In this document: positions 11,419-11,503 of the stretch, piece by piece | Layout of the letters: the number at the start of each line of letters is the position of its first letter | Numbering within the stretch: the stretch's first letter is position 1 | Source of the DNA: an uncultured Candidatus Poseidoniales archaeon | GTDB lineage: Archaea > Thermoplasmatota > Poseidoniia > Poseidoniales > Thalassarchaeaceae | Length of the DNA: 30,069 bases | Reading direction: 5' to 3' | Assembly (NCBI GenBank): GCA_964645485.1 | Contig: CAZXZO010000006.1 | Location: 75,333 to 105,401, forward strand | Made by a program: the position numbers and the translations under genes | Notes under the pieces: generated by a model | The model's input: only the letters and a program-made list of their open reading frames with translations | Told to the model about the DNA's origin: nothing | Database searches by the model: none

Positions 11419-11435
11419 CTCACCCTATGGGTGAG
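11419..11435. promoter_or_regulatory. 17-bp palindrome, copy 1 (CTCACCC-TAT-GGGTGAG), candidate operator overlapping the S8 protease RBS
   Basis: Perfect 7-3-7 inverted repeat 4 nt from the S8 ATG; related copies at 17416 and 29922. Confidence 0.6.
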
Positions 11436-11503
11436 ACACAACTGCTTTGAATCTGCCCCATTCCGCCGTCATACTGAAATCAGCGACGGCTCTGAACCGT
11501 TTG

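Follow-up and report, generated by a model that had tools for sequence, protein, structure and literature searches.

Three 17-bp palindromes in a 30,069-nt stretch of a Marine Group II genome (the window) are best read as local cis-elements within a larger population of inverted repeats found at the gene starts and gene junctions of this lineage. They are non-random, conserved and covarying, and in this the preliminary description of the DNA was right. Its further interpretation, a single repressor controlling a regulon of secreted hydrolases, did not hold: that the three palindromes are sites of one regulator defining a secreted-protein regulon is not supported. With moderate confidence, the palindromes are instead taken to be stem-loops that are selected for their structure and would act in RNA, where pairing of the arms would affect expression.

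Abundant in the ocean, the archaea of Marine Group II are uncultured and lack genetics. Their extracellular proteases and nucleases are thought to drive the use of high-molecular-weight organic matter. The analysis removes an unsupported regulon and offers testable cis-features in its place, namely a lineage-specific TT[C/G]AA element, a palindrome combining Shine-Dalgarno (SD) and anti-SD sequences at the S8 protease gene and at atpH, and pervasive GC-rich triloop hairpins. These features help the calling of start codons and operons in Marine Group II genomes, and could be compared with existing ocean metatranscriptomes.

Results

Occurrence and structure of the palindromes

The palindromes follow the consensus CTCRCCC-WWW-GGGYGAG over 17 bp, with a 15-nt core TCRCCC-N3-GGGYGA, and were found at the positions first reported for them:

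11419..11435, minus strand: palindrome copy 1 (A-type), CUCACCC-AUA-GGGUGAG, 7-bp stem and 3-nt loop, -10.0 kcal/mol as RNA
17416..17432, plus strand: palindrome copy 2 (G-type), CUCGCCC-UAA-GGGCGAG, -11.5 kcal/mol
29922..29938, minus strand: palindrome copy 3 (G-type, 6 bp), AUCGCCC-UAA-GGGCGAG, -9.7 kcal/mol

Folded as RNA, all three copies form stems of 6-7 bp with a 3-nt loop, at the energies listed. The pattern CTCRCCCWWWGGGYGAG was searched with up to two mismatches in the window and in 100 shuffles of it. Three matches were obtained against 0.04 expected, a number reached in none of the 100 shuffles. The genome (1.94 Mb in 55 contigs, 44% GC, the window being C6:75333-105401) contains no match to the 17-bp pattern with at most one mismatch beyond the three of the window, and the exact 15-nt core is likewise restricted to these sites, which are confined to 18.5 kb. 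Relaxing the genome scan to three mismatches was given up, as it returned mostly coding-sequence noise; the scan for a regulon gave three sites only.

Two subtypes had been merged in the preliminary description. The A-type, TCACCC-N3-GGGTGA, is that of copy 1, and the G-type, TCGCCC-N3-GGGCGA, is that of copies 2 and 3. An origin from REP or MITE elements or from a duplicated upstream region was rejected, as the copies share no alignable flanks; three copies in the genome without extended flank similarity do not make up a REP/MITE-like repeat. An Rfam scan of the window at the gathering score matched the palindromes to no family, the only hit being the tRNA at 7091-7165. Nothing was found in the literature on such palindromes in Marine Group II.

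Conservation and covariation in relatives

The core TCRCCC-W3-GGGYGA is present in all 20 other genomes of the genus, with one to four copies each, in three of four genomes from other genera of the family and in one of 16 from other families of the order. The reversed core, used as a control in the same genomes, gave about zero. Pairs of cores about 6.0 kb apart occur in several genomes and are syntenic. In the syntenic class that lies between S8 and its divergent neighbour, all 14 distinct sites read TCACCC...GGGTGA, with 5 nt separating it from the ATG. The conservation upstream of orthologous genes that the original proposal called for is thus found throughout the genus, for S8 (14/14 distinct sites) and for PLD (8/8). 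Taken with the synteny, and with the retention of the palindrome beside S8 in genome G016, this conservation shows the element to be genuine and selected.

The symmetric change between copies at the R/Y pair, one of the first features to be noticed, proved to covary. In 44 distinct non-coding sites from relatives, the pair is AU in 24, GC in 19 and GU in one, and no site leaves it unpaired. The seventh pair, left free in the search, is CG in 22 sites, UA in nine, UG in two, AU in one, GC in one and something else in nine. The covariation score was 0.234, compared with 0.114 in shuffles, and was reached by none of 500 shuffles; as the related genomes are not independent, these figures are counts and not probabilities. 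In small samples, mismatches of the G-U type and of the A-C type numbered six and seven, and loops read GTA in 11 cases and TAC in seven, without strand asymmetry. Extended pairing around copies 2 and 3 was considered and discarded, as it is not conserved in the orthologues.

In relatives, the same core precedes atpH, an L44e-like ribosomal-protein gene, gatE, the gene after guaA and genes for secreted proteins.

The A-type palindrome at the S8 protease gene

The features at the start of the S8 gene are the following:

11412..11414, minus strand: start codon (ATG) of the S8 subtilase, whose gene spans 9402-11414 (Pfam Peptidase_S8, E = 2.8e-52)
11419..11425, minus strand: gene-proximal arm GGGTGAG, the S8 Shine-Dalgarno sequence; GGTGA starts at -10 from the ATG
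11429..11435, minus strand: distal arm CTCACCC, the same as the 16S anti-SD core (UCACC); begins 12 nt after TTCAA

Read along the gene, the sequence at copy 1 is CTCACCC-ATA-GGGTGAG-CAAG-ATG, the palindrome ending 4 nt upstream of the S8 ATG (11414). This ATG is kept in all orthologues, at 4-5 nt from the palindrome and with an open frame after it. The 3' end of the genome's own 16S rRNA, read directly, is GGATCACCTCCT, and GGTGA peaks genome-wide at -9 and -11 before ATGs, making it the canonical SD here. A functional SD within the stem is found in copy 1 only, the GGGCGAG of copies 2 and 3 not being an SD. As an alternative to a repressor, it had been suggested at the outset that the ribosome-binding site forms one arm of a hairpin masking translation. 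Copy 1 fits this suggestion, with the SD GGGTGAG in one arm and the anti-SD core opposite.

Copy 1 is perfect in 14 of 14 S8 orthologues of genus g1 and in 13 S8 contigs from metagenomes, and the S8 palindrome is also perfect in genera g5 and g13. Across 61 genomes of the family, TCACCC-N3-GGGTGA occurs at 36 sites, against five for the reversed control. In the loci retrieved, about 40 distinct A-type sites were read; about 26 of them have a start codon 4-5 nt downstream, which belongs to S8 (g1, g5, g13), to atpH (g1, g3, g17) or to one other ORF. In about 35 sites from five genera, neither the A-type core nor its N3 spacing varies, and the SD/anti-SD palindrome recurs at S8 and atpH with perfect pairing in the orthologues of the genera just given. 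The invariance of both arms across genera is most simply explained if the SD function fixes one arm and the need to pair with it fixes the other. S8 orthologues devoid of the palindrome (g2, g3, g4, g11, g12, g14, g15) are also devoid of a clear SD. In G016, two genes adjoining S8 are absent and the palindrome remains with S8. In the present genome, atpH (the V-ATPase subunit H gene) has a weakened version, TCACCC-AT-GGGTGG. A-type sites at S8 and at atpH do not co-occur by genus.

Were both arms of copy 1 included in one RNA, the ribosome-binding site would be masked and the message would begin with a stable structure. The hairpin could then tune the initiation of S8 translation, the stability of the mRNA, or both. 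Copy 1 might also serve the divergent gene, whose putative TTG start is found 11 nt past the other arm.

Two further candidates at this locus were rejected. An upstream ORF that terminates within the copy 1 loop is unconserved, with stop codons and loop changes in relatives. A "double SD" serving both S8 and the divergent neighbour is at odds with the persistence of the palindrome in G016, where the neighbour is missing, and at atpH, where there is no divergent start. Such a double use would be possible in g1, where a TTG is 11 nt away, and in g13, where an ATG is 4 nt away. In one metagenome scan, none of 48 contigs had ends consistently at the palindrome.

Copy 2 and the TctA-PLD spacer

Copy 2 begins 6 nt past the TGA stop codon of TctA (17407-17409) and ends 57 nt before the ATG (17490) of the LTD/PLD gene, which encodes a protein of 1636 aa. 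These genes belong to an apparent OB-fold/TctA/PLD/nucleoside-phosphorylase gene row with gaps of 18, 80 and 33 nt. The palindrome is directly followed by a conserved block:

17433..17445, plus strand: conserved block GCAAATTCTAATG directly 3' of copy 2; CTAATGG / ACTAAGG kept across genera

This block may be the TATA-like element of a putative internal PLD promoter.

The eight distinct orthologous sites first collected in the genus all retain copy 2 as TCGCCC...GGGCGA. Family-wide, the TctA-PLD spacer nearly always carries a perfect GC-rich hairpin of 6-10 bp, with stems that differ. The stem is CTCGCCC in g1, G011 having one loop base less; G007, from the same genus, has CGAGGAGA-gtac-TCTCCTCG at another place. 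In g3 the spacer contains (TG)CGAGGTTC-yyy-GAACCTCG(CA), 3 nt before a GGAGG SD, and one of these g3 hairpins has a G-T pair that corresponds to a G-U wobble on the sense strand. The form ACGACATCC-aac-GGATGTCGT is found in one of two g2 genomes, and (C)GCAGGGC-nnn-GCCCTGC(G), abutting the SD, in g13 and g5. No hairpin was found in the spacer of g15. Judged from the spacers compared, the structure is kept and the sequence is not.

Copies 2 and 3 would most likely be RNA structures within read-through or polycistronic transcripts, copy 2 forming an intercistronic hairpin in the OB-fold/TctA/PLD/phosphorylase row. The G-type hairpins could have a role in the protection of RNA ends, in processing or in the attenuation of read-through.

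Copy 3 and the PPC-domain gene

Copy 3 ends 48 nt upstream of ATG 29873, at which a protein of 1603 aa (MFHNNN...) begins; the assignment of a PPC domain to this protein rests on a weak hit. Orthologues conserve ATG 29873 and not the upstream TTG 29915, and the ATG is therefore taken as the true start of the gene. The gene has its own conserved GGTTCAAGTAT at -29:

29898..29902, minus strand: TTCAA in the conserved block ATGGGTTCAAGTAT, -29 from ATG 29873 and downstream of the palindrome

This TTCAA is the leaderless-type promoter of the PPC-domain gene, and copy 3 ends 19 nt upstream of it. At orthologous loci the copy 3 site is downstream of a tRNA-Asn gene. As it precedes the gene's own promoter, copy 3 would be transcribed only by read-through out of the tRNA gene. 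It would then form a hairpin in the read-through RNA from tRNA-Asn, ahead of the promoter of the PPC-domain gene.

The hairpins of the PPC orthologues are TCGCCC-TAA-GGGCGA in this genome, TCGCC-ACGG-GGCGA in G011, TCGCCCC-TTA-GGGGCGA in G016 and CGCCC-TTTA-GGGCG in genus g5. G016 thus has a compensated 1-bp insertion in both arms, and both loop and stem length are changed in G011 and g5. The distance from TCGCC to GGCGA is 5 nt in this genome, 4 nt in G011, 7 nt in G016 and 6 nt in g5. A hairpin tolerates such changes of spacing, whereas a dimeric DNA-binding protein normally does not.

Promoter element and predicted transcription starts

A de novo EM motif search in 730 upstream regions of this genome yielded TT[C/G]AA (TTSAA), as in GATTGAAA. 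Relative to ORF starts, the motif begins most often at -30..-28, a sharp peak of 43 occurrences in the bin over a background of about 13, which is the geometry expected of leaderless genes. A further 76 SD-led genes carry TTSAA at -36..-47. TT[C/G]AA is the general TATA-like promoter element of the lineage and not a box specific to a regulon.

This bears on the boxes that flank two of the palindromes:

11443..11452, minus strand: copy 1 flanking box ATTCAAAGCA, containing TTCAA (11451 to 11447), -37 from the S8 ATG
29946..29955, minus strand: copy 3 flanking box ATTCCAAGCA; no TTSAA match and poorly conserved in orthologues

A shared 10-nt box had been described 7 nt from copies 1 and 3 and assigned to the TATA position. 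Both boxes exist at that distance. The assignment is upheld at copy 1, where the box contains TTSAA, the S8 promoter motif family-wide, and overlaps TTG 11447, which may be the start of the divergent gene. It fails at copy 3, where the gene's own TTCAA lies downstream and ATTCCAAGCA is unrecognisable in G011 and loosely similar in G016. In the other genera read, the element found 22-30 nt upstream of the S8 start is aaCCGTTTGATTCAAGTCTAa, or CCGTTTTATTAAAATG in g12, and it can be aligned with cagATTCAAAGCAg of g1.

The distance from TTSAA to the transcription start was calibrated on this genome's geometry: leaderless starts lie 24-25 nt after the end of the motif, and the shortest SD-led leaders need a distance of at most about 19-20 nt. 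At S8, the nucleotides that follow TTCAA make up the distal arm (12-18), the loop (19-21) and the SD arm (22-28) in g1, g5 and g13 alike. A transcript from the TTCAA promoter is therefore predicted to begin in the loop or in the SD arm, with the palindrome at about -13..+4. Since the distal arm begins about 12 nt after TTCAA and the start is expected at about 19-25 nt, the distal arm would remain untranscribed, and no RNA hairpin would arise from that promoter. It is this predicted start inside the palindrome that keeps an operator at the DNA level among the readings, unlikely as it is. Both atpH and a g5 secreted-protein gene, a homologue of the ORF at 12668-14014, show TTSAA, 18 nt and TCACCC, and their expected transcription start falls at the loop; the g5 gene has its ATG within the loop and TTGAA at -30. 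The geometry of the start site speaks in favour of the A-type acting at the DNA level; against this stand the identity of the SD, the covarying flanking pairs and the incoherent targets.

The GC-rich hairpins of the genome

Perfect stems of at least 6 bp with at least five G/C per arm were counted in this genome. Such hairpins amount to 0.2-0.6 per kb in intergenic regions and 0.08 per kb in coding sequence, an approximately 6-fold difference. Their stems are variable, with an apex that is often CCC/GGG, and their loops are mostly GTA/TAC, TAT/ATA and TAA/TTA, symmetric under reverse complement. The apex k-mers CGTAGG, CCGTAG and ATAGGG are 4-5-fold enriched at -70..-15 upstream of genes. The hairpins are least frequent in convergent intergenic regions, at 0.025 per region compared with about 0.07 in tandem and 0.068 in divergent ones, which ties them to gene starts more than to gene ends. 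Many are located 17-26 nt after a TATA-like box, just before the SD. No clear peak was seen in the distance from the hairpins to TTSAA or to AT-rich 8-mers.

Each genome has roughly 20 triloop hairpins with a CCC apex. A given TCR prefix should then turn up about 0.6 times, and the extra TCGCCC sites of the relatives are thus about what chance gives. Three such sites in 18.5 kb of one genome are somewhat above expectation.

Discussion

If the palindromes act as RNA stem-loops, their closest known counterparts are bacterial. Bacterial mRNA hairpins that sequester the SD include translational operators, the ROSE and fourU RNA thermometers and the hairpin of the MS2 coat gene. Copy 1 and its relatives resemble them in holding the SD GGGUGA in the 3' arm, 4-5 nt from the AUG, the 5' arm of copy 1 being the anti-SD sequence; the module is kept across genera. 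They differ in that the host is archaeal, and in that the predicted promoter geometry may exclude the 5' arm of copy 1 from the transcript. Unlike thermometers, copy 1 has a perfect, GC-rich stem without the weak pairs typical of them. Other bacterial stem-loops stabilise messages, such as the leader of E. coli ompA, that of the B. subtilis subtilisin gene aprE, and the REP hairpins in malE-malF. The palindromes share with these stabilisers a short stable hairpin, placed where a leader begins or between two cistrons, and a conservation of structure over sequence, as in the PLD spacer. The initiation of mRNA decay in bacteria is reportedly the subject of a review (PMC3997798). Unlike in bacteria, the enzymes of decay are archaeal and differ, and the position of the hairpin relative to the 5' end is a predicted one. 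Unlike REP, this stem exists in three copies and forms no repeat family.

The principal competitor of the RNA stem-loop is a DNA operator, in which a dimeric transcription factor would bind the palindrome, either at sites of both types or at the A-type only. The factor would repress from between the TATA-like element and the start at S8, and activate from upstream of the promoter at PLD and the PPC-domain gene; in the narrower version, its sites would be those of S8, atpH and the g5 homologue of the 12668-14014 ORF. We regard this as unlikely. Palindromic operators that overlap the transcription start or flank the TATA box occur in archaea, the TGM motif TATCAC-N5-GTGATA of TrmB/Tgr and the sites of MDR1, Phr, NrpR and SurR being examples, and the predicted placement of copy 1 is a classical one for an archaeal repressor. 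Copy 1 shares with such operators the dyad symmetry and half-site centres 10 bp apart, it is located downstream of the TATA-like element and covers about -13..+4 relative to the start that TTCAA predicts, and its A-type core with N3 is invariant at the A-type sites of five genera, about 35 in number. One g5 gene has TTGAA at -30 and its ATG at the centre of a perfect 21-bp palindrome, TGGTCACCC-TAT-GGGTGACCA, the upstream arm of which is probably untranscribed in this leaderless geometry. All three sites of the window precede genes with signal-peptide-like N-termini, as judged by eye. The repressor geometry put forward in the preliminary description is that of copy 1, about 11 nt downstream of TTCAA, and is not that of copy 2, directly upstream of the putative TATA, or of copy 3, at about -65..-49. 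At the TGM motif in Thermococcales, Tgr/TrmBL1 represses or activates depending on position, which could in principle explain the three placements.

Several findings weigh against an operator. Unlike in archaeal operators, the spacing is not kept in orthologues: the distance between the half-sites varies from 4 to 7 nt in those of the G-type, and unrelated palindromes replace them in other genera and in G007, which speaks against a single dimeric repressor. The flanking pairs covary as base pairs (CG, UA, GC, AU), and a protein half-site needs none. The genes behind the sites of relatives, from atpH to the ribosomal-protein gene, gatE and the gene after guaA, are unrelated, and together with a genome scan that gave only three sites they leave a secreted-hydrolase regulon unsupported; the lack of co-occurrence of S8 and atpH sites by genus points the same way. 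That a half-site should be an SD at canonical spacing in two gene families is an unlikely coincidence. The half-site spacing is fixed in the A-type and variable in the G-type, and neither functionally related targets nor a consistent position relative to TATA and start was found. The neighbouring ORFs scanned contain no HTH domain or transcription-factor gene; genes of the TrmB family exist elsewhere in the genome.

Two readings that dispense with a regulator were also weighed. The palindrome could be a terminator or 3'-end hairpin of the upstream gene, TctA for copy 2 and tRNA-Asn for copy 3, since copy 2 begins so close behind the TctA stop, copy 3 follows the tRNA-Asn gene in orthologous loci and similar hairpins are found just past guaA and other stops in relatives. 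This is the most improbable reading, because none of the copies is followed by a T-run, a terminator scan around copy 1 (11300-11600) found none, copy 1 sits between divergent genes, the GC-rich hairpins are rarest in convergent spacers, and the PLD hairpin of g3, g5 and g13 is adjacent to the SD of PLD and distant from the stop codon of TctA. It is also very doubtful that the palindrome is a factor-independent dyad of the core promoter, a GC-rich palindrome straddling the start with the A/T "TA" loop as initiator, in which hairpins in the opened strands would influence the choice of the start site or the melting of the promoter. Loops dominated by TA-containing triplets, symmetric under reverse complement, are in line with such a dyad, as are palindromes with the ATG in their loop or placed between TTSAA and a start of the leaderless type (examples are C22:19609, SHMT at 24999-25014, C1:66094 and C4:77885). 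Against it, the inverted repeats have no significant preferred distance from TTSAA or AT-rich 8-mers, and copies 2 and 3 are away from any predicted start; we know of no precedent in archaeal promoters.

Lastly, the RNA and DNA roles of the A-type might be combined, TCACCC-N3-GGGTGA being read as a DNA palindrome at the start by a regulator or by the initiation machinery, and its downstream half becoming the SD. Such dual use appears rather improbable. If true, one 15-bp motif would gate both transcription and translation of the main extracellular protease, and the ATP-synthase operon would be gated likewise in some genera. High expression of S8 peptidases in Marine Group II is among the results reported from Red Sea mdRNA-seq (PMC5069720).

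Promoter motif of the genome

Across the whole source genome, the dominant upstream motif is TT[C/G]AA (GATTGAAA) and not the classical TTTAWATA box. Its start position peaks at -30 to -28 before the ORF starts, a distance which suggests that many genes are leaderless. Upstream enrichment was also found for the classical TATAAA/TTATAA k-mers. Examples of the motif in the window are:

11447-11451, TT[C/G]AA
25016-25020, minus strand, TTGAA
29898-29902, TT[C/G]AA

The second of these flanks a fourth GC-rich palindrome of the window (24999-25014, GGCGGC-CAAG-GCCGCC), which is located between the motif and the ATG at 24989, the probable start of the SHMT gene. 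The PPC-domain gene ends with its stop codon 48 nt upstream of this palindrome.

Start of the gene divergent from the S8 protease gene

The divergent neighbour of the S8 protease gene, which has no Pfam match, may begin at TTG 11447 rather than at ATG 11504. The TTG is 11 nt from the palindrome of the S8 gene. The 19 codons separating the two candidate starts (11447-11503) are open and free of indels genus-wide; genus g3 has TTC in place of the TTG.

Palindromes in relatives

The spacer that separates guaA from a small zinc-ribbon gene is represented by:

L020:1480-1560, locus of the relative G007
C8:59568-59700, contig of the source genome

In relatives, this spacer contains TCGCCC-TAA-GGGCGA, followed 20 nt further by GTCGCC. 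As judged from this arrangement, GGGCGA could form a stem with either of its two partners, a layout resembling an attenuator. The source genome has lost the first arm and retained the other two segments. At an apparent operon junction in a genome of genus g3 (G022, L121:1501-1525), the upstream ORF may end with a stop codon in the loop of the palindrome TCACCC-TGA-GGGTGA, with the frame assigned by eye. The 3' arm is the Shine-Dalgarno sequence of the next gene, the ATG of which is 4 nt further.

tRNA and rRNA genes

A stretch of 16 nt at 30019-30034 matches the 3' end of tRNA-Asn (CCTGCACACGGCGCCA) in every base, and the contig terminates just beyond. ARAGORN detected no tRNA at this position, where orthologous loci contain a complete tRNA-Asn, and the sequence upstream of the 16-mer diverges from these loci. 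Either an assembly break or a past integration event at the tRNA, leaving a scar, may account for this. One tRNA gene is flanked by minus-strand ORFs:

7091-7165, plus strand, tRNA gene (Rfam RF00005, 68 bits)

Elsewhere in the source genome, a single contig carries the 16S rRNA 3' end twice (C10:33980 and C10:37791), as identical copies spaced by 3.8 kb; either the rRNA genes are oddly arranged or the assembly is in error here. The same hairpin (CAGGGTGC-ttcg-GCACCCTG) comes after each of the copies.
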